Positions 5,282 to 10,354 of a stretch of 10,462 nt of DNA are shown here, piece by piece (position 1 is the stretch's first letter; every line of letters starts with the position of its first letter). The stretch is from the IMG/VR virus record IMGVR_UViG_2698536535_000003, one strand, 5' to 3'. This stretch comes from a virus (lineage: Duplodnaviria; Heunggongvirae; Uroviricota; Caudoviricetes). The position numbers and the translations under genes are program-made. The notes under the pieces were generated by a model, which was given only the letters and a program-made list of their open reading frames with translations, had not been told where the DNA came from and did no database searches.

Positions 5282-5692
5282 TTAGTGATTTAGGCCGTTG
5301 CCGCGTCCGTCGAGAAAAACTTCCACGAGCAAATCACGGGTATAAGTGCGCTCGATGCCGCGATGCAGATATAGCCGTCCGCGTAAATTAGCTGATGCAG
5401 TCCAGGTACCATCTTTGTGTTTGACCAGCATTCCTGGCATGACCGCACCGCGATTAACGGTCTGCGTTCCGTAATGTTGATGAACCATAAAAACTCCTGC
5501 CCGTAAGCTGGGCTGCTGAACATATATAGACTTCTGCGCGTATTCAGGCGGTGGATGGCCGCCGGTTGTCATAACTAAGCCGCCTCGTTGAAGCGACTGA
5601 GGTATGAAGTGTTGAGTTGATTTCAGCTGGTCACACCGACGTTCACGCGTCCGCTTCACCCCTCGCACTCCCCGGAGCCTGCTGAAATTCAA
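5282..5692 (-). CDS. Hypothetical protein in the first position of the pL operon (N slot); arginine-rich N-terminus; start codon uncertain
   Basis: ORF-track frame starts at a TTG (5692); candidate GTG starts at codons 8 and 11 and an ATG at 5572. N-terminal segment [15 protein letters not shown] is arginine-rich, loosely like ARM motifs of N antiterminators. No family recognised. An alternative-frame ORF (5290..5523) overlaps it. Confidence 0.35.
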
Positions 5693-5710
5693 GCTGCGGA
5701 TCTAAGCGGT

Positions 5711-5760
5711 CATCGCAACGGTGAATCAGGTGGTTGCCGTATCGTTGTGTTGTTGCGATG
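5711..5760. repeat. 9-bp perfect inverted repeat (CATCGCAAC ... GTTGCGATG) with 32-nt spacer in the pL leader region
   Basis: CATCGCAAC at 5711..5719 and its exact reverse complement GTTGCGATG at 5752..5760. Lies between the putative pL and the first early-left ORF. Confidence 0.5.
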
Positions 5761-5766
5761 AATTTA

Positions 5767-5830
5767 TTTAAAACTATAGTTGTTTTATCGTCAACAACAA
5801 AAGTTGTTTTACTGGTTGTTTTAGATATAA
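5767..5830 (-). promoter_or_regulatory. Putative pL promoter with overlapping oL operator half-sites
   Basis: On the minus strand TTGACG (5794..5789), 17-nt spacer, TTAAAT (5772..5767). The region carries repeated GTTGTT/AACAAC half-sites (AGTTGTTttatcgtcAACAAC, AGTTGTTtt, ACTGGTTGTT x2) that match the arms of the oR palindrome at 8424..8448. Confidence 0.4.
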
Positions 5831-5928
5831 CTGGTTGTATTTAGGATGGATTTATTTTGTGACTTGCATCGCATAGCGATAACTGAAGGGATGTCGTGGT
5901 GGTTATTTGAACGGTTTGTGTGATGAGG

Positions 5929-5961
5929 GGAGGCAAAAGAAAACCCGGCACGGTGGCCGGG
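5929..5961 (-). terminator. Intrinsic (rho-independent) terminator closing the repressor-moron operon
   Basis: GC stem CCCGGC (5944..5949) / GCCGGG (5956..5961) with a 6-nt loop; on the minus-strand RNA it is followed by UUUUCUUUUG (plus-strand 5929..5943 is A-rich). Lies 36 nt downstream of the DUF3037-like gene stop. Confidence 0.75.
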
Positions 5962-5996
5962 TTATTAATAAGGAATATCACATACAAAAATAAATT

Positions 5997-6824
5997 TTAA
6001 ACTTGGGGAAGTATTTTTTTTGCAAAATCAATAGTTTCTTTGTGGTTGGATGCAGGTATATGATTTATTTTCTTAGCATCCATAGTTCTCTTTATGATGT
6101 CAATAACTTTGCTTTGGCCTGAGTTTGGTGATTCAGGAGTTTCAATTGTGAATAAAATGTCATCAAGTGAAAGCAGGTTTTCTTCTGCTGCTCGAGTTAT
6201 TCTCATCACCCAAGTATCACTATGCTCCATCATTTTTCCTGGTTCAGCTTGAGTGAATGCCAGAGGTTTGATGGCACATTGGATCCTGTCATGCTTCTTG
6301 GCGACCAATGGCATTGAGAACTTTGCGAAATACCCATCAATGGTTGCTTGTTTGAAGACGTTCTTCAATCCATCTATTCTATCGATACTTCGTTTTAGCT
6401 CTCTGGCTAGAACATCTTCACGGCGCTCTTTTGTGTAGTCAGAGTGGTTTACATATTTATTGTAAATGCGGGCCAGCTCTTCTTTTGGGTTTTCGCTGAG
6501 AATCACTCTCGTAGAACTGAACTGAAAAATTGATTCTTTTTTGTTTGTAAAATATCTGAAGAATTGTGCAAGTTGTTGATGTCCAACAATCTGGGTCGCA
6601 TGCATTTTTGCGAATTGTAGTTCTCTTTGTATTGAGTCTTTTGCTACAGGGAAAATACAATCATCATGGAAAAAATTCTTTACACGAGAGTCATTTCGCT
6701 TTGTGAGCTGGAAATCAAAGTAATTTTCTTTTGGCGCGCACAGAAGTACGCCTATGTTTGCGAACTCTTCAGTCTCCGCATAAGGCGCATAGCGAACGAT
6801 GCTATATAGGCATGGAGTTGTCAT
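5997..6824 (-). CDS. DUF3037-like protein (275 aa), second gene of a two-gene moron
   Basis: Track ORF starts at a TTG (6839); ATG at 6824..6822 overlaps the stop of the upstream gene (ATGA). The N-terminus MTTPCLYSIVRYAPYAETEEFANIGVLL resembles the conserved N-terminal signature I recall for DUF3037-family proteins. GC content is about 33% in sampled 60-nt windows versus about 55% in bet. Confidence 0.7.
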   Translation of the reverse strand: MTTPCLYSIVRYAPYAETEEFANIGVLLCAPKENYFDFQLTKRNDSRVKNFFHDDCIFPVAKDSIQRELQFAKMHATQIVGHQQLAQFFRYFTNKKESIFQFSSTRVILSENPKEELARIYNKYVNHSDYTKERREDVLARELKRSIDRIDGLKNVFKQATIDGYFAKFSMPLVAKKHDRIQCAIKPLAFTQAEPGKMMEHSDTWVMRITRAAEENLLSLDDILFTIETPESPNSGQSKVIDIIKRTMDAKKINHIPASNHKETIDFAKKILPQV

Positions 6825-7570
6825 TCTATTGCGCTCCAAAATTCATCACAATCACCTTTGTCTAGCGTAGTGCAGACAAAAGGTAAAAACTCCTCATCTA
6901 CTATCCACTCTTCTGGAATTTCGTCAAGGATAGCAGGAAGCTTGTGTAAACTGTTAACGACCCTCTGGCGGTACTCTACGCGATCCACTAAATCATATTG
7001 CCATTTGCGGTTACCAGGGCCGTACACGTGCACAGAAAAATCTTCAGGTCCAGCATTCTGATCAAATGAGAGATTATGGTCAATCAGATAATACTTATCG
7101 TTACTGATGTCATAAAGGATGTTAACGTTTCCACCTTTGTCAGTAAGCGTTCTGTCTGCATTTAATATCCATTTATCAAAAACATAGATTAATTTTTGCT
7201 GTTCGACTGGGATGATCGTTTCGTTTCTTGACTGCGTAAACGTTAACGCTATTGCACCGTCAATGAACAATGAAGCAAAGGCATATCCTGTACAAATTTG
7301 TTGCTGCAGATCAGGTGAGTACTCTATAAGTTCCTCTGGCACAAATACGATTTTAAAGTCAGGTAAAGGAAGGCCGATATCATTAGCCAAACATGCCGAA
7401 ATGAACTCAGCTAAGAGATTTTTCGGGGGCATTGATGGTTTTGACTTCAAAACATACAACTGCCCATCATCACATTTGCAAAGAAATGGCTGAGTGGAAC
7501 CTTCATTGATGCGACGTATTACCTCAACGACATTAGGTATTGCACTATTGCTGCTCGCTACGCACTCCAT
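6821..7570 (-). CDS. Atypical protein kinase-fold protein (HipA/PI3-4K-like motifs, 249 aa), first gene of a two-gene moron
   Basis: Track start is a GTG at 7573; the second codon is ATG (7570..7568) with AAGGG 6 nt upstream. Motifs: a nucleotide-binding-like N-terminal segment (INEGSTQPFLCKCDDGQLYVLKSK, with Lys in YVLK), a catalytic-loop-like FDKWILNADRTLTDKGGN, and a downstream LIDHN metal-binding-like segment. Stop TGA at 6823..6821 overlaps the next start. Confidence 0.65.
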   Translation of the reverse strand: MECVASSNSAIPNVVEVIRRINEGSTQPFLCKCDDGQLYVLKSKPSMPPKNLLAEFISACLANDIGLPLPDFKIVFVPEELIEYSPDLQQQICTGYAFASLFIDGAIALTFTQSRNETIIPVEQQKLIYVFDKWILNADRTLTDKGGNVNILYDISNDKYYLIDHNLSFDQNAGPEDFSVHVYGPGNRKWQYDLVDRVEYRQRVVNSLHKLPAILDEIPEEWIVDEEFLPFVCTTLDKGDCDEFWSAIE

Positions 7571-7692
7571 CACTAACCCTTATGTGATTCAAGTCTTCCA
7601 TCTCATTACTCCGCATCTCAAAGAGCGGTTTAACACTGCGTGTTTAAAGAAAAACAACAGGCCTATTGCTGTAACTGTTTTTTAGCCTCACT

Positions 7693-8382
7693 TTAACCAT
7701 GCTTCCTATATGTTTGCGGCATGCTCCCAATAACCTTACCGAAGATGAACACCCGGTTCATCTCGTCTTTCTCGATCGGGTCCCACGGTGAGTAGCTCTT
7801 GTTATCAGAAATAACCAGCAGCTTATCCTTCATCATTTGCAGGCGCTTTACATGGGCGGTGTCGTCATACAGAAACGCATAGATACCATCACCGTCGAAA
7901 GATTTAACCGTGATATCAACGAACAGCAGATCACCTGGTTCGATCGTTCCTGACATGCTGTCACCACGCACGTTAATGATGCGGATATTTTCTGCCTTCC
8001 TACCATCGAACATGTGACGAGCATCGTCAAACGAGTACTCAACCGAGCGTAGAACTTCTACAAACTCACGGTTGATGACTCCCGGCCCGGCACTCACTTC
8101 TATATCAAGAACGTCAATCTTAAAGTATTTGGAATGGCTGACAGTTGATTGTATTGGTTGCACTGTACTGTCTGACATATTTCCAACGCCAGAAGATAAC
8201 CATTCTGCGCGCACACCCAAAGCGTTCGCGATCTCCACGATTTTAGTTGTTTGGTTAGCTTTCCCTGTTTCGATTTTCTGAATAGCAGCTTGGCTAACCC
8301 CGACCAAATCCCCAAGCGCCTTTTGTGTAAGGCCTCGCGCTAATCTGGCTTCTTTAAGTCTTTCTGAGAGTGTTGTTTTCAT
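7693..8382 (-). CDS. cI-type prophage repressor: N-terminal HTH-XRE DNA-binding domain plus C-terminal S24 (LexA-like) autopeptidase domain
   Basis: From ATG at 8382..8380: MKTTLSERLKEARLARGLTQKALGDLVGVSQAAIQKIETGKANQT (HTH), then VRGDSMSGTIEPGDLLFVD (Ser nucleophile) and AHVKRLQMM (catalytic Lys). The track start at 8448 adds 22 N-terminal residues with no support. No SD before the ATG. Confidence 0.85.
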   Translation of the reverse strand: MKTTLSERLKEARLARGLTQKALGDLVGVSQAAIQKIETGKANQTTKIVEIANALGVRAEWLSSGVGNMSDSTVQPIQSTVSHSKYFKIDVLDIEVSAGPGVINREFVEVLRSVEYSFDDARHMFDGRKAENIRIINVRGDSMSGTIEPGDLLFVDITVKSFDGDGIYAFLYDDTAHVKRLQMMKDKLLVISDNKSYSPWDPIEKDEMNRVFIFGKVIGSMPQTYRKHG

Positions 8383-8486
8383 AGACCAAATGTACAACCA
8401 AGGTTTTATTACATCAAACGAAAATGGTTGTTGACTAAAAACAACCATGGTTTTAATCTTGATTCAGATTAACCACGGAGGTTGTT
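8383..8486. promoter_or_regulatory. Divergent immunity control region (oR operators with pRM-like and pR-like promoters)
   Basis: Perfect palindrome ATGGTTGTT-N7-AACAACCAT at 8424..8448 overlaps a plus-strand TTGACT (8431..8436) with a 17-nt spacer to TAATCT (8454..8459), then GGAGG (8477..8481) and the cro ATG at 8487. On the minus strand TTGATG (8417..8412), 17 nt, TACATT (8394..8389) ends 6 nt before the repressor ATG. An additional half-site-like ACAACCAaGGTT sits at 8394..8405. Confidence 0.55.
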
Positions 8487-8717
8487 ATGAACCCAGCAAT
8501 CAAAACAGCGATCAATATCGTTGGTTCACAAAAGAAACTGGGCGATGCCTGCGAAGTTTCACAGCAGGCCGTCTATAAGTGGCTTCACAACAAAGCAAAG
8601 GTATCCCCTGAACATGTCGGCAGCATTGTTACGGCTACTGGTGGAGTTGTGAAGGCATACCAGATTCGCCCGGACCTTCCGAAGTTGTTTCCACACACCG
8701 AAAAGAACGCAGCTTAA
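8487..8717 (+). CDS. Cro-like HTH regulator (YdaS-family-like, 76 aa)
   Basis: Small protein divergent from the repressor and immediately after the operator region; LGDACEVSQQAVYKWL is HTH-like; the C-terminal ATGGVVKAYQIRPDLP resembles YdaS-type Cro proteins as I recall them. Strong RBS. Confidence 0.8.
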   Translation: MNPAIKTAINIVGSQKKLGDACEVSQQAVYKWLHNKAKVSPEHVGSIVTATGGVVKAYQIRPDLPKLFPHTEKNAA

Positions 8718-8729
8718 ATTTCCATTTCA

Positions 8730-8775
8730 CGCTCTTTAACAATAAGCAATCAACTTAACAGACTGATTAACAGTC
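8730..8775 (+). promoter_or_regulatory. Putative nutR-like site: boxA-like CGCTCTTTA plus boxB-like hairpin
   Basis: CGCTCTTTA at 8730..8738 (lambda boxA consensus CGCTCTTA). Perfect hairpin GACTG-ATTAA-CAGTC at 8761..8775 (5-bp stem, 5-nt loop, no U-run after it), in the cro-cII intergenic position where lambda carries nutR. Confidence 0.3.
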
Positions 8776-8798
8776 AATTCAAACTAAAGGAATTAATT

Positions 8799-9338
8799 AT
8801 GCAACCAATTACATACCAACAGACTAGCGGAATTACCCCGGCTGCGCTGATAAATCGTTCTCAAACAAAACAGGCGACAGGCCACGAAAAAATCCGTGAT
8901 GCCGTTCGCGCCTGGTCGGCTGCAGATAATCAGGATGTTGTTGCCGCACTCATTGTGAATGAGTATCGGGAGCAGGGCGGCGGCACCATCGATTTCCCTG
9001 ATGATGTCAGTCGTGCACGCCAGAAGCTGTTCCGCTTCCTCGATAACAAATTCGATTCTGAAAAATACCGAAATAACGTGCATGAACTGACCCCGGCAAT
9101 TCTGGCGGTACTACCGCTGGAATATCGCAGCCACCTGGCTGAGCAGGATAGCTTCATGGCCCGGTTGGCTGAAATGGAAAAGGAACTCAGTGAGGCAAAG
9201 CAGGCGGTCATTCTCAACGCACCACGCCACCAGAAACTGAAGGAAATGAGTGAAGGTATTGTGTCGATGTTTCGTGTGGACCCGGATCTGGCTGGTCCAT
9301 TAATGGCGATGGTTACCACCATGCTGGGGGCAATATGA
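8799..9338 (+). CDS. YdaT-family-like protein occupying the cII position (179 aa)
   Basis: ATG at 8799 with AAGGA upstream. Segments EYREQGGGTIDFP and LTPAILAVLPLEYRSHL resemble YdaT-type proteins as I recall them; follows a YdaS-like cro. No resemblance to lambda CII. Confidence 0.55.
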   Translation: MQPITYQQTSGITPAALINRSQTKQATGHEKIRDAVRAWSAADNQDVVAALIVNEYREQGGGTIDFPDDVSRARQKLFRFLDNKFDSEKYRNNVHELTPAILAVLPLEYRSHLAEQDSFMARLAEMEKELSEAKQAVILNAPRHQKLKEMSEGIVSMFRVDPDLAGPLMAMVTTMLGAI

Positions 9339-9424
9339 CAGATTCAGAAATGGCGAAAGTCGGTCTGCGGGAACAGAACCGACTTTCAGGTGCAAATCGT
9401 AACGCACTCATTGCGGGAGGAATT

Positions 9425-10354
9425 ATGGCAAACACTGCTGAGATATTCAATTTTCCAGTGCCGGATGTGGCACAAAAGGAGCCGCGCGTGGCAGATCTCG
9501 ATGATGGTTATACGCGCATTGCAAATGAGTTGCTGGAAGCTGTAATGCTGGCCGGATTAACACAGCACCAGCTTCTGGTCTTCCTGGCTGTCATGCGCAA
9601 AACATATGGCTTTAATAAAAAACTGGATTGGGTGAGCAACGAGCAACTTTCCGAGTTGACCGGGATATTGCCGCACAAGTGTTCTGCTGCAAAAAGTGTT
9701 CTGGTAAAGCGTGGGATTTTTATTCAGAGCGGGCGGAATATCGGCATTAATAATGTGGTCAGTGAATGGTCAAAATTACCCGAATCAGGTAAGAAAAATA
9801 AAGTTTACCTGAAAGAGGTAAATTTACCTGAATCAGGTAAGAAAAGTTTACCCAAATCAGGTAAAGGCACTTACCCGAATCAGGTAAACACAAAAGACAA
9901 ACTAACAAAAGACAATATAAAACCTTATTCGTCCGAGAATTCTGGCGAATCCTCTGACCTGCCAGAAAACGACCTTCCTGTGGTGAAAGCGGATGCTGCG
10001 ATTCAGAGCGGCAGCAAGTGGGGGACAGCAGAAGACCTGACCGCCGCAGAGTGGATGTTTGACATGGTGAAGACCATCGCGCCATCAGCCAGAAAACCGA
10101 ATTTTGCAGGGTGGGCTAACGATATCCGTCTGATGCGTGAACGTGATGGACGTAACCACCGCGACATGTGTGTACTGTTCCGCTGGGCCTGCCAGGACAA
10201 CTTCTGGTCCGGTAACGTGCTGAGTCCGGCCAAACTCCGCGACAAGTGGACCCAGCTCGAAATCAACCGGAACAAGCAACAGGCTGGCGTGACAGTCGGC
10301 AAACCAAAACTCGACCTGACAAACACTGACTGGATTTACGGGGTGGATCTATGA
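9425..10354 (+). CDS. O: Replication initiator, lambda O-like (origin-binding protein)
   Basis: From ATG 9425 (GGGAGG 4 nt upstream): MANTAEIFNFPV...RVADLDDGYTRIANELLEA...LVFLAVMRKTYGFNKKLDWVSNEQLSELTGILPHKC parallels the lambda O N-terminal domain. The gene contains the iteron array and its stop overlaps the P start (ATGA). The track start at 9335 is probably a 5' over-extension. Confidence 0.88.
   Translation: MANTAEIFNFPVPDVAQKEPRVADLDDGYTRIANELLEAVMLAGLTQHQLLVFLAVMRKTYGFNKKLDWVSNEQLSELTGILPHKCSAAKSVLVKRGIFIQSGRNIGINNVVSEWSKLPESGKKNKVYLKEVNLPESGKKSLPKSGKGTYPNQVNTKDKLTKDNIKPYSSENSGESSDLPENDLPVVKADAAIQSGSKWGTAEDLTAAEWMFDMVKTIAPSARKPNFAGWANDIRLMRERDGRNHRDMCVLFRWACQDNFWSGNVLSPAKLRDKWTQLEINRNKQQAGVTVGKPKLDLTNTDWIYGVDL
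9776..9887. repeat. Replication origin iterons (ori-lambda-like), five 17-bp palindromic repeats followed by an AT-rich segment
   Basis: TTACCCGAATCAGGTAA (9776..9792), degenerate TTACCTGAAAGAGGTAA (9805..9821), TTACCTGAATCAGGTAA (9824..9840), TTACCCAAATCAGGTAA (9848..9864), TTACCCGAATCAGGTAA (9871..9887). Each contains the palindrome TACCNGA-A-TCAGGTA. A-rich tract 9888..9925 follows. All lie in frame within the O-like gene. Confidence 0.85.

Follow-up and report, generated by a model that had tools for sequence, protein, structure and literature searches.

The 104-bp intergenic region at 8383..8486 of the DNA analysed here (10,462 nucleotides, hereafter the window) is, with a probability of roughly 80%, the right operator (oR) of a lambda-type cI/Cro switch, in which the repressor would read 14-bp sites in the style of phage 434, three at oR and two at the left operator (oL). 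The likely recognition sequence, to which binding is predicted, is A[C/A]AAC-N4-GTT[G/T]T, 14 bp long with half-sites reading inward. The features that place a locus among the lambdoid cI/Cro switches were found here, namely divergent genes, a repressor with a helix-turn-helix (HTH) and an S24 domain, and multiple oR and oL operators located at predicted promoters. The region lies between a cI-type repressor gene (7693..8382, minus strand, 229 aa), with a 434-like HTH N-terminal domain and an S24 (LexA-like) peptidase C-terminal domain, and cro (8487..8717, plus strand, 76 aa), a P22-Cro/YdaS-like HTH gene that diverges from cI at a distance of 104 bp. The same divergent layout is annotated in the PhiR5_1 record and in E. 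coli RefSeq genomes.

A preliminary description of this DNA had pointed to a perfect inverted repeat at oR as the probable operator, and the repeat is present as described. ATGGTTGTT at 8424-8432 and AACAACCAT at 8440-8448 form 9-bp arms around a 7-nt spacer (GACTAAA, 8433-8439), and the resulting palindrome (8424..8448) encloses the TTGACT hexamer at 8431-8436, the -35 of the rightward promoter pR. A perfect 9-bp inverted repeat was present in just 2.6% of shuffles of the 104-bp intergenic region. Over the whole window, perfect 9-bp inverted repeats with a loop of at most 20 nt numbered 1.03 per dinucleotide shuffle, and 55% of the shuffles contained at least one. Since about one such repeat is expected window-wide by chance, the palindrome alone is weak evidence, and the significant part of the observation is the clustering of half-sites. 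AACAAC/GTTGTT occurs at the leftward promoter at 5749-5754, 5779-5784, 5793-5798, 5803-5808 and 5815-5820, which is 5 copies in 72 bp against about 0.055 expected (Poisson P ~4e-9); the whole window held 16 copies against 8.0 expected. The clustering had been put earlier at four or more copies within 5781..5830, where we counted three fully inside and one across the left edge. The half-sites said to match at oL are likewise there, but the same palindrome is not: GTTGTT-N7-AACAAC occurred a single time in the window, at 8427-8445, and pattern search at oL gave no match even with two mismatches. The outward-facing pair at the leftward promoter pL (5779-5784 and 5793-5798) has an 8-nt spacer, compared with N7 at oR.

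The unit that recurs is instead the 14-mer. In an unbiased enumeration of all 5-mer palindromes with a spacer of 0-12 nt, ACAAC-N4-GTTGT ranked top, with 5 matches in oL plus oR and 0 in the remaining 10.3 kb. The pattern AMAAC-N4-GTTKT had 4 exact matches in the window, all of them in oL or oR, compared with 0.09 expected, and none of 200 shuffles reached 4. Among 37 oR regions associated with the same recognition helix, inward ACAAC-N-GTTGT was found 27 times at N=4 and never at N=3 or N=5, and outward GTTGT-N-ACAAC was found 12 times at N=9 (equal to the N7 of the palindrome as first described), 3 times at N=10 and twice at N=8, counts which overstate the number of independent events because the comparison loci are partly kin (11 are from Pectobacterium). 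The N4 unit was invariant across about 40 prophages from many Enterobacterales genera. A weight-matrix search, which had been suggested earlier, recovered sites at both oR and oL. The matrix trained on oR sites together with the oL sites of the window detected oL1/oL2 pairs 24 bp apart in Klebsiella, Salmonella and Erwinia phages, and a matrix built from the five sites of the window alone detected such pairs in 18 of 35 genome loci; with the five-site matrix, all but one of the matches scoring at least 14 bits fell on oR, oL or the cro ribosome-binding site. Base 1 of the half-site was A in 22 of 22 and position 5 was C in 20 of 22. Because it is the 14-mer that is repeated across the window, oL included, and in relatives of many genera, and because its geometry is that of the 434 repressor, we consider it, and not ATGGTTGTT-N7-AACAACCAT, to be the likely recognition sequence. 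The preliminary description was thus correct in that the half-site contains ACAAC/GTTGT, but not in taking the 25-bp palindrome for the operator. A 17-bp register, AAAAC-N7-GTTTT with centres at 8446, 8423 and 8399, was also considered and rejected, as the strict half-site gave 1 occurrence at N=7 compared with 27 at N=4; this register is unfit for oL2 and oR2 and arises from the A-rich flank of ACAAC.

Two of the three oR sites match the pattern exactly, oR3 (8394..8407, ACAAC-CAAG-GTTTT) and oR1 (8441..8454, ACAAC-CATG-GTTTT), and oR3 is a direct repeat of oR1 at a distance of 47 bp. oR1 fills the spacer of pR, between the -35 on the plus strand (8431..8436, TTGACT) and a predicted -10 on the same strand (8454..8459, TAATCT) 17 bp further on, such that the last T of oR1 is the first base of the -10. 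Between these two sites lies oR2 (8418..8431, ACGAA-AATG-GTTGT), with a weak left half that agrees with the consensus at three of five positions and a consensus right half that ends on the first T of the pR -35. The centres of oR3 and oR2 are 24 bp apart and those of oR2 and oR1 are 23 bp apart, while oL1 and oL2 are separated by 24 bp, a distance at which a repeat was also registered there. The palindrome is most likely formed by two adjacent 14-mers placed back to back and facing apart, as it runs from the centre of oR2 through the right half of that site, across the 9-bp gap between the operators with the pR -35, and through the left half of oR1 to its centre.

These elements are retained in relatives to different degrees. 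oR3 was found in 37 related loci at the same distance from the cI start, mostly as perfect ACAAC-N4-GTTGT, and oR1 is kept with a variable 4-bp centre, in which 8449 G>A is the only common within-group polymorphism of that site. The pR -35 reads TTGACT, TTGCAA or TTGAGT in relatives and the -10, which has three of six consensus positions here, reads TATTCT, TATATT or TATAAT. Within the group, 19 haplotypes obtained from 80 contigs varied mainly at 8385/8386, 8410-8412, 8449 and 8466/8467, and this polymorphism does not discriminate between registers because it avoids both the arms of the 14-mers and those of the palindrome. In two single contigs (L226 and L249) the A-run between oR2 and oR1 was shortened or lengthened by 1 bp, which could be due to sequencing errors.

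A leftward promoter for cI maintenance, pRM, is also predicted, with a -10 (8389..8394, minus strand, TACATT) whose first T pairs with base 1 of oR3 and a -35 (8412..8417, minus strand, TTGATG) that directly abuts oR2; oR3 lies within the spacer, and the centre of oR2 is at approximately -42.5 relative to the predicted start at 8382. The TTG of this -35 (CAA at 8415-8417) was invariant in an alignment of 6 oR sequences, and relatives have TTGCCG, TTGACC or TTGAAT at that position, while a TAnnTT hexamer (TACATT, TAAATT, TATGTT or TATCTT) and its distance to the ATG are kept upstream of their cI genes. The predicted -10 ends 6 nt before the cI ATG, implying a leaderless cI mRNA, and no Shine-Dalgarno sequence was seen ahead of that ATG. 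The cI message of lambda is leaderless as well. A promoter scan with consensus models reported none of pR, pL and pRM, whose hexamers are weak. The cI/Cro-type control architecture proposed earlier is supported in kind, since the sites overlap predicted pR and pL and abut a plausible pRM, although the operator register given with it does not.

According to the proposed working of the switch, a repressor dimer, and by inference also Cro, would occupy each 14-mer. Repressor bound to oR1 in the pR spacer and to oR2 on the pR -35 would silence cro, and occupation of oL1 and oL2 would shut off pL likewise. Since oR2 abuts the -35 of pRM, which would start at or beside the cI ATG, oR2-bound repressor could activate this promoter in the manner of lambda, and at high repressor level oR3, which lies in the pRM spacer, could mediate its repression. 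The distance between the outward-facing half-sites would be set by the -35/-10 geometry of pR. If the 14-mer is the unit of recognition, isolated ACAACAAAAGTTGT should bind at nanomolar affinity and isolated GTTGTTGACTAAAAACAAC should offer at most two weak half-sites.

The weak point of a three-site oR is oR2, which scored 14.4 with the 7+7 matrix and 11.2 bits with the 5+5 matrix and is by itself near background, compared with 12.3 bits for a doubtful site over the cro ribosome-binding site. A rival reading is an arrangement simpler than that of lambda, in which oR3 and oR1, 47 bp apart, are the only true operators and GTTGT at 8427-8431 is an auxiliary half-site or -35 context. The poor left half of oR2 (ACGAA, replaced in some relatives by CGGAT, AAGAT, ACCGT or ATCAC) is what such an arrangement would predict, and several relatives (L032, L036, L046 and L049) have just two strong sites, 47-48 bp apart. 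We nonetheless judge it quite unlikely, because ACGAA is conserved across genera while the adjoining gap between oR3 and oR2 is not, five loci of the Salmonella/Pantoea type have a perfect ACAAC as the left half, phages with an SQPAIQK recognition helix have three clean 14-mers at the same positions, and the 24/23-bp spacing is lambda-like. In the Salmonella/Pantoea lineage the strong and weak halves of oR2 are swapped (ACAAC-N4-GTGTT) and the recognition helix is the same.

At oL, the two sites are clear. oL1 (5770..5783, AAAAC-TATA-GTTGT, or ACAACTATAGTTTT in the direction of pL) is an exact match in the pL spacer, beside the -10, and oL2 (5794..5807, ACAAC-AAAA-GTTGT) is a perfect palindrome with 5-bp arms, the first base of which is the first T of the minus-strand pL -35 (5789..5794, TTGACG). 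For the -10 of pL (5765..5771, minus strand), either TTAAAT at 5771-5766 with a 17-bp spacer or TAAATA at 5770-5765 with an 18-bp spacer is suitable, and the predicted start is at about 5759. At the -35, GTCAAC was invariant in the oL alignment, and pL and pR can be aligned across about 40 bp. oL1 has a counterpart at the corresponding place in phages of Klebsiella, Salmonella and Erwinia outside the training set and in about 30 genome loci, and the difference in spacing between oR (23 bp) and oL (24 bp) was repeated in Klebsiella and Salmonella relatives and in 12 genome loci. Upstream of oL2 (5814..5843, plus strand) there are two further copies of GGTTGT(T/A)TTTA, with GTTGT at 5815-5819 and 5834-5838 lacking an inverted partner, and similar GGTTGTTTT(T)A copies are present upstream of oL2 in the Klebsiella, Salmonella and Erwinia relatives. 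A search for a third oL operator upstream of oL2 yielded these unpaired GTTGT half-sites and no 14-mer above threshold.

With both operators laid out, the palindrome can be weighed as an operator in its own right, that is, as ATGGTTGTT-N7-AACAACCAT centred on the pR -35 and bound by one dimer (or a tetramer) through outward half-sites. Besides being perfect over 9+9 bp and rare in shuffles of its own intergenic region, the repeat has 5-bp cores that are fully complementary (5/5) in 17 of 21 relatives and the N7 spacer in 18 of 21, and no arm substitution was seen in the 19 population haplotypes, two of which have a 1-bp indel in the spacer. Conservation of the outward pair is attributed here to promoter geometry, although a real outward unit would look alike. 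Other observations make a 25-bp operator very unlikely: about one such repeat is expected per window by chance; its counterpart at oL is missing within 2 mismatches and has spacer N8 there; and it does not account for oR3 or for the right-hand half of oR1 and the distal halves of both oL sites, all of which are conserved. In the 21 relatives, the spacer varies from N6 to N8 and the complementarity of the arms from 4 to 9 of 9 positions, being perfect in only 2, with the three outer bases varying without compensation. In the Salmonella/Pantoea lineage, with its identical helix, the palindrome is broken and the 14-mer is intact, since oR2 keeps its left half. Judging from homology, outward half-sites would also turn the dimer interface of each 434-type monomer to the wrong side.

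That the palindrome works by folding into a nucleic-acid hairpin, such as an intrinsic terminator or an attenuator of transcription through oR, is scarcely credible, for although a terminator scan flags it on both strands (9-bp stem, 7-nt loop, then a T-rich run) and the stem forms in RNA folding (-11.8 kcal/mol in a 66-nt context), the stem has just 3 G-C pairs, its z-score is -1.87 with 10 of 200 shuffles folding equally well, pairing in relatives ranges from 4 to 9 of 9 with no compensatory change, a terminator would stop leftward establishment transcripts short of cI, and transcripts from pR would lack the palindrome because it lies upstream of their predicted start at about 8466.

The repressor sequence is in keeping with the 14-mer reading. 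Pfam matches to HTH_3 (residues 9-62, 5.4e-13) and Peptidase_S24 (residues 95-218, 1.2e-18) were obtained, with UmuD-like matches over residues 136-218, and with its S24 domain the protein may undergo RecA-stimulated self-cleavage. In RefSeq, four E. coli genomes carry the gene annotated at 690 nt. The PhiR5_1 record has a 251-aa form beginning at the ATG at 8448; this start would fall inside oR1, and the ATG is missing in relatives. Residues 5-68 align without gaps to residues 2-65 of the 434 repressor (phmmer E 4.5e-9, 39% identity), with SQAAIQK (Q31...K36) as the recognition helix. Q31, the equivalent of Gln28 of 434, was invariant among 7 aligned N-terminal domains. Across immunity groups the three 14-mers are always in the same place, and position 2 of the half-site tracks the type of recognition helix: Q-A-A helices occur with ACAAC, the SQPAIQK group with ATAAC-N4-GTTAT, and the AQPTIWR group with ATACG-N4-CGTAT. 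This offers a natural series for how 434-type helices read DNA, in which one scaffold is combined with ACAAC, ATAAC or ATACG depending on the helix.

Structures of the phage 434 repressor with its operator are available (1PER, 1RPE and 2OR1). The 434 operators in the annotated record OL657226 are 14-mers of the form ACAA-N6-TTGT, with OR spacings of 23 and 22 bp. The similarity to 434 includes the full-length, ungapped homology of the N-terminal domain, inward 14-bp operators whose outer four bases are ACAA in most half-sites here, an oL2 (ACAACAAAAGTTGT) that fits ACAA-N6-TTGT exactly, three oR sites 22-24 bp apart, and conservation of the Gln that contacts base 1. In comparison, two of the three base-contacting residues are changed (Q29 to A32 and Q33 to K36), as is R43 (to T46), position 5 of the half-site is predominantly C here and variable in 434, and AAAAC half-sites are tolerated here. 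The site in the pR spacer is oR1 here, as in lambda, and OR2 in 434; two clear oL sites contrast with three in 434; and the cro gene is not 434-Cro-like. From these sequence comparisons, the immunity specificity differs from that of 434, although the repressor would work like that of 434.

The similarity to lambda lies in the layout, with divergent cI and cro, three operators whose centres are 23-24 bp apart (23 and 24 bp in lambda OR), OR2 overlapping the pR -35 and OR1 the -10, a cI with an S24 domain, and OR3 beginning 10 nt from the cI ATG, compared with 11 nt for oR3 here. The lambda operators, however, are 17 bp long and unrelated in sequence, and the N-terminal domain of lambda cI is of another type that bears an N-terminal arm. 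Lambda also has three OL sites and the N gene after pL; here, the PhiR5_1 annotation places no N-like gene in the interval from pL to kil, and nothing N-like came to light when the kil-frame ORF was extended upstream. The pL leader of about 270 nt, considered as a possible carrier of a put-RNA or N-like function, gave an RNA fold z-score of -0.70, and no Rfam family matched anywhere in the window.

Among the repressors described, that of Stx phage 933W, which also has a 434-like N-terminal domain, is comparable in several respects (PMC3317979). It has five natural operators, three at OR and two at OL, with A-C invariant at half-site positions 4-5, and its K46, the helix equivalent of Lys36 here, makes contact with G in the C:G pair that is invariant at position 5 (PMC3317979). 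The 933W site differs in being 15 bp long around a central base pair and in having G at position 2 (PMC3317979). Its repressor was reported to bind adjacent sites without cooperativity (PMC3317979).

A closely related N-terminal domain (72-75% identity, with an identical VSQAAIQK helix) is found in a cI homologue of Pectobacterium, which has ACAAC-N4-GTTGT beside its start codon and a Mor-family gene downstream. The promoter of the Mor-family gene, TTGACA-CAAAA-ACAACTATAGTTTT-AAAT, resembles pL/oL1 here in its layout and its 14-mer. These loci differ in that the homologue is a chromosomal regulator without an adjacent cro and with only one site upstream of the repressor gene. From their gene content we infer that they are rdgA/rdgB, the RdgA/RdgB DNA-damage circuit of Pectobacterium (Liu et al. 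1994, as cited in PMC13566846 and PMC7843439). An rdgA/Mor-type circuit would then be linked to a phage switch by what is apparently the same 14-mer.

A candidate fourth operator-like 14-mer is located over the ribosome-binding site of cro (8472..8485, ACCAC-GGAG-GTTGT), a match with one mismatch that has the cro Shine-Dalgarno sequence in its centre and corresponds to approximately +6 to +19 of the predicted pR transcript. That it is a further site for repressor or Cro is possible, though we consider it doubtful. In 23 unique relatives, the left half was ACAAC in 9, AAAAC in 3 and one mismatch off in 7, and the right half was GTTGT in 11 and GTTTT in 7. The left half also follows the immunity group, being ATAAC in some SQPAIQK phages and ATACC in the AQPTIWR group. 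On the other hand, the left half shows no conservation at its position 3, oR1 lies anywhere from 27 to 32 bp away, and lambda, despite its unrelated operators, reads ACTAAGGAGGTTGTATG at its cro start, so part of the likeness comes from shared ribosome-binding-site context. If true, this site would give cro a further level of control, through a roadblock or an operator close to the promoter, that had not been described before and would be shared by a large family of 434-like switches.

Phages of a different immunity cease to be homologous at about 5759, the predicted pL start, and inside cI at about 8144. With homology beginning at about 5758/5759, the immunity-specific DNA ends at the predicted start of pL, and the two boundaries imply that oL, oR, cro and the part of cI encoding the N-terminal domain are exchanged together. 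The flanks are shared by phages in which the cI N-terminal domain is another one and oR carries different 14-mers. We found no published description of the operators of this immunity type; searches with the exact operator strings retrieved only unrelated mouse papers, and those with PhiR phage names and gene names gave nothing useful. The operator definition, if correct, would provide the right fragments and point mutations for binding and reporter work and would make superinfection immunity and cross-immunity predictable among these prophages. General knowledge of such switches is unchanged. In all likelihood this is the ordinary kind of lambda/434-style switch, carried by an E. coli prophage that is very common. 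The immunity type was present in 1521 of 5426 complete E. coli genomes, with the prophage located at the emrE/ybcK (DLP12-type) locus in at least some cases, and it also occurs in recently isolated temperate phages.

The 10.5 kb of the window form the early region of an E. coli prophage of the lambdoid type, with the gene order exo-bet-gam-kil, pL, a HipA-like kinase/DUF3037 pair, cI, cro, a YdaT-like cII and replication gene O, and Escherichia phage PhiR5_1 is 98.7% identical to it over 5600-8800. The cI repressor (7693..8382, minus strand, 229 aa) has HTH_3 and Peptidase_S24 domains, and cro (8487..8717, rightward) encodes a P22-Cro/YdaS-like protein of 76 aa. The 229-aa repressor, starting at the ATG at 8382, is the form annotated by RefSeq in four E. 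coli genomes; in the GenBank record of PhiR5_1, cI begins instead with the ATG at 8446-8448 (251 aa), a codon that falls in the centre of the candidate operator oR1 and is absent from relatives. Of 5426 complete E. coli genomes, 1520 carry a 261-bp segment around the cI/cro intergenic region (oR) with 95-99% identity, and a single further genome has it at 80-90%; emrE and ybcK follow the prophage in two of the E. coli genomes examined. Judged from its sequence, the region appears to be an ordinary lambda/434-type switch, whose immunity specificity is very common but apparently undescribed.

The preliminary description had proposed as repressor operator a perfect palindrome in oR, ATGGTTGTT (8424-8432) and AACAACCAT (8440-8448) separated by 7 nt, with matching half-sites at the leftward promoter (oL). 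The palindrome was placed exactly, the pR -35 hexamer (TTGACT, 8431-8436) falls inside it, and the half-site hexamer does cluster at the left promoter (5749, 5779, 5793, 5803 and 5815), with five copies in 72 bp versus 0.055 expected. The palindrome by itself is not strong evidence: perfect 9-bp inverted repeats with loops of at most 20 nt occurred on average 1.03 times per shuffled window, although when the intergenic region (104 bp) alone was shuffled, just 2.6% of shuffles contained one. At oL the half-sites are present, but the N7 palindrome is absent even at two mismatches, and the outward pair at pL (5779-5784 and 5793-5798) has a spacer of 8 nt. The system and the half-site were recognized correctly, while the binding unit was most likely not, an inward-reading 14-mer giving the better fit.

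This 14-mer, A[C/A]AAC-N4-GTT[G/T]T, is most likely the binding unit of the repressor. A repeat finder returned direct repeats 47 bp apart, ACAACCAAGGTTTTA (8394) and ACAACCATGGTTTTA (8441), and two related 22-mers 24 bp apart at oL, all left unused by the palindrome model. Candidate operators were assigned at oR3 (8394-8407, ACAACCAAGGTTTT), oR1 (8441-8454, ACAACCATGGTTTT), oL1 (5770-5783, AAAACTATAGTTGT) and oL2 (5794-5807, ACAACAAAAGTTGT), with a weaker member, oR2 (8418-8431, ACGAAAATGGTTGT), exactly between oR3 and oR1. Exact matches to the 14-mer in the window numbered four, at oR3, oR1, oL1 and oL2, against 0.09 expected, a number reached in 0 of 200 shuffles. In an enumeration of all 5-mer palindromes (spacer 0-12 nt), made with no prior assumption, ACAAC-N4-GTTGT ranked first, with five matches in the 190 bp of oL and oR and none in the other 10.3 kb. 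The oR centres are spaced 24 and 23 bp, the two oL centres 24 bp; in the lambda record the OR spacings are 23 and 24 bp. No third 14-mer was found at oL upstream of oL2 (5814-5843). Unpaired GGTTGTTTTA repeats occur upstream of oL2 here and in relatives; 5814-5843 holds two unpaired GGTTGT(T/A)TTTA repeats, with similar copies in Klebsiella, Salmonella and Erwinia relatives.

Related phages were collected by tblastn (54-74% identity to the N-terminal domain). Three 14-mers are retained at oR in Klebsiella, Salmonella and Erwinia phages, with divergence in the flanks and the 4-bp centres, and a matrix trained without the oL sites of these phages recovered the oL pair, 24 bp apart, in all three. 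A scan of Enterobacterales genomes, one for each species, gave 44 loci, with the recognition helix VSQAAIQK exact in 34 and VTQAAIQK in three more. A matrix built from the window's five sites only recovered the oL pair 24 bp apart in 18 of 35 genome loci, and in these loci it gave only one strong match outside oR, oL and the cro ribosome-binding site. Over 37 oR regions, inward ACAAC-N-GTTGT was seen 27 times with N=4 and not once with N=3 or N=5, and the outward arrangement 12 times at N7, 3 times one base longer and twice one base shorter, though such comparison counts are not independent events, because many loci are closely related. Other immunity groups have three 14-mers at the same positions on the same scaffold, with half-sites that track the helix: ATAAC-N4-GTTAT with SQPAIQK, ATACG-N4-CGTAT with AQPTIWR, and similar AT-type sites with other Q-P helices.

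Since the left half of oR2 is weak, an oR of two operators and an auxiliary half-site is a live alternative. Some probability also belongs to the reading in which the outward 25-bp palindrome is itself the binding unit; its main support is that, among 21 three-site loci, N7 is kept in 18 and the 5-bp cores in 17. oR2 overlaps the pR -35 by one base, and oR1 fills the 17-bp spacer and overlaps the -10 by one base, so that promoter geometry would set how far the right half of oR2 lies from the left half of oR1. Both are consensus halves, and geometry and consensus together would explain the kept spacing and cores with no separate binding unit needed. The arms in these 21 loci have 4-9 of 9 bases complementary (perfect in only two) and spacers of N6, N7 or N8, and their three outer bases, which are the oR2 and oR1 centres, change without compensation. 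In the Salmonella/Pantoea lineage, oR2 reads ACAAC-N4-GTGTT, with strong and weak halves exchanged, which leaves the 14-mer intact and breaks the outward palindrome. An outward dimer would also need subunit contacts on the face opposite to that of 434, which seems hard to square with an ungapped homologous domain. Population variation within the immunity type avoids the positions of both models and does not discriminate between them; two single contigs, in which the A-run of the gap has lost or gained one base, may contain sequencing errors.

An ungapped alignment pairs repressor residues 5-68 with residues 2-65 of the 434 repressor (E 4.5e-9). The annotated 434 genome has six 14-bp operators, ACAA-N6-TTGT, the OR centres being spaced 23 and 22 bp; their length and inward orientation are those of the 14-mers here, and the outer four bases, ACAA, are common to most half-sites here. 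In the 434 repressor a Gln contacts operator base 1; its equivalent, Q31, is invariant in seven aligned N-terminal domains, and base 1 is A in 22 of 22 tabulated half-sites. Lys36 is the equivalent of 434 Gln33, and position 5 is C in 20 of the 22. A Lys at this helix position in the 434-like 933W repressor reads the G of the invariant C:G at half-site position 5 (PMC3317979). By homology, Q31 would contact base 1 and Lys36 position 5. oL2 (ACAACAAAAGTTGT) is an exact fit to the 434 consensus and might be open to partial cross-recognition by the 434 repressor.

All promoters are predictions, and a consensus promoter scan of the window reported none of pR, pRM and pL. The putative pR -10 (TAATCT, 8454-8459) matches consensus at only 3 of 6 positions, relatives having TATTCT, TATATT or TATAAT; the start would lie near 8466, ahead of the cro Shine-Dalgarno GGAGG (8477-8481). 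On the minus strand, the predicted pRM has -35 TTGATG (8417-8412) and -10 TACATT (8394-8389). Because this -10 is six bases from the cI ATG, no Shine-Dalgarno precedes that ATG, and relatives conserve both a TAnnTT hexamer here and its separation from the ATG, the cI message is predicted to be leaderless, as in lambda. oR3 would lie within the pRM spacer, and the oR2 centre about 42.5 bp upstream of the predicted pRM start, abutting the -35; lambda repressor activates pRM from that position. The predicted pL (minus) has -35 TTGACG (5794-5789) and a -10 register ambiguous by one base, so placed that oL1 would lie within the spacer and oL2 touch the -35.

An operator-like 14-mer, ACCAC-GGAG-GTTGT (8472-8485), encloses the cro Shine-Dalgarno. 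Its counterpart is closer to consensus in many relatives (among 23 unique ones, left half ACAAC or AAAAC in 12, right half GTTGT or GTTTT in 18), and in other immunity groups the left half changes along with the half-site of the group. A cro leader much like this one is also present in lambda, however, with ACTAAGGAGGTTGT at this position.

Sequence shared with phages of other immunity runs up to about 5759, where pL is predicted to start, and begins again within cI at about 8144; the S24 domain is common to them, and exchange has affected oL, oR, cro and the DNA-binding domain. These breaks define one exchangeable module of operators, DNA-binding domain and cro. Between cI and pL, the lambda rexAB position, lie a HipA_2 kinase (E 9.9e-77) and a DUF3037 protein (5997-7573, minus), annotated in PhiR5_1 as HipA toxin and HipD antitoxin; in other phages of this immunity the cargo differs, for example GevT/GevA, a lipoprotein or nothing. 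The stretch between pL and kil (5490-5760, minus) has no annotated N-like antiterminator gene, and this pL leader of about 270 nt gave no Rfam match and folds in no unusual way (z-score -0.70); phi80 and HK225 share with the window a 60-nt piece at about 5547-5608. At the start of gene O lies a perfect 10-bp-arm inverted repeat (9355-9387, GAAAGTCGGT, 13-nt spacer), and within the gene AAAACCTTATTCGT (9919-9932) has an operator-matrix score of 13.2; the latter also occurs in a phage of different immunity (L009) and is therefore not immunity-related.

In Pectobacterium chromosomes (comparison loci L017-L027, e.g. L022 3486-5087), a cI homologue with an identical recognition helix has a Mor-family activator gene downstream of it. 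The pair is probably the rdgA/rdgB circuit, and likely a domesticated version of the cI-pL module; the promoter of the Mor-family gene, TTGACA-CAAAA-ACAACTATAGTTTT-AAAT, has the same -35/14-mer/-10 layout as pL.
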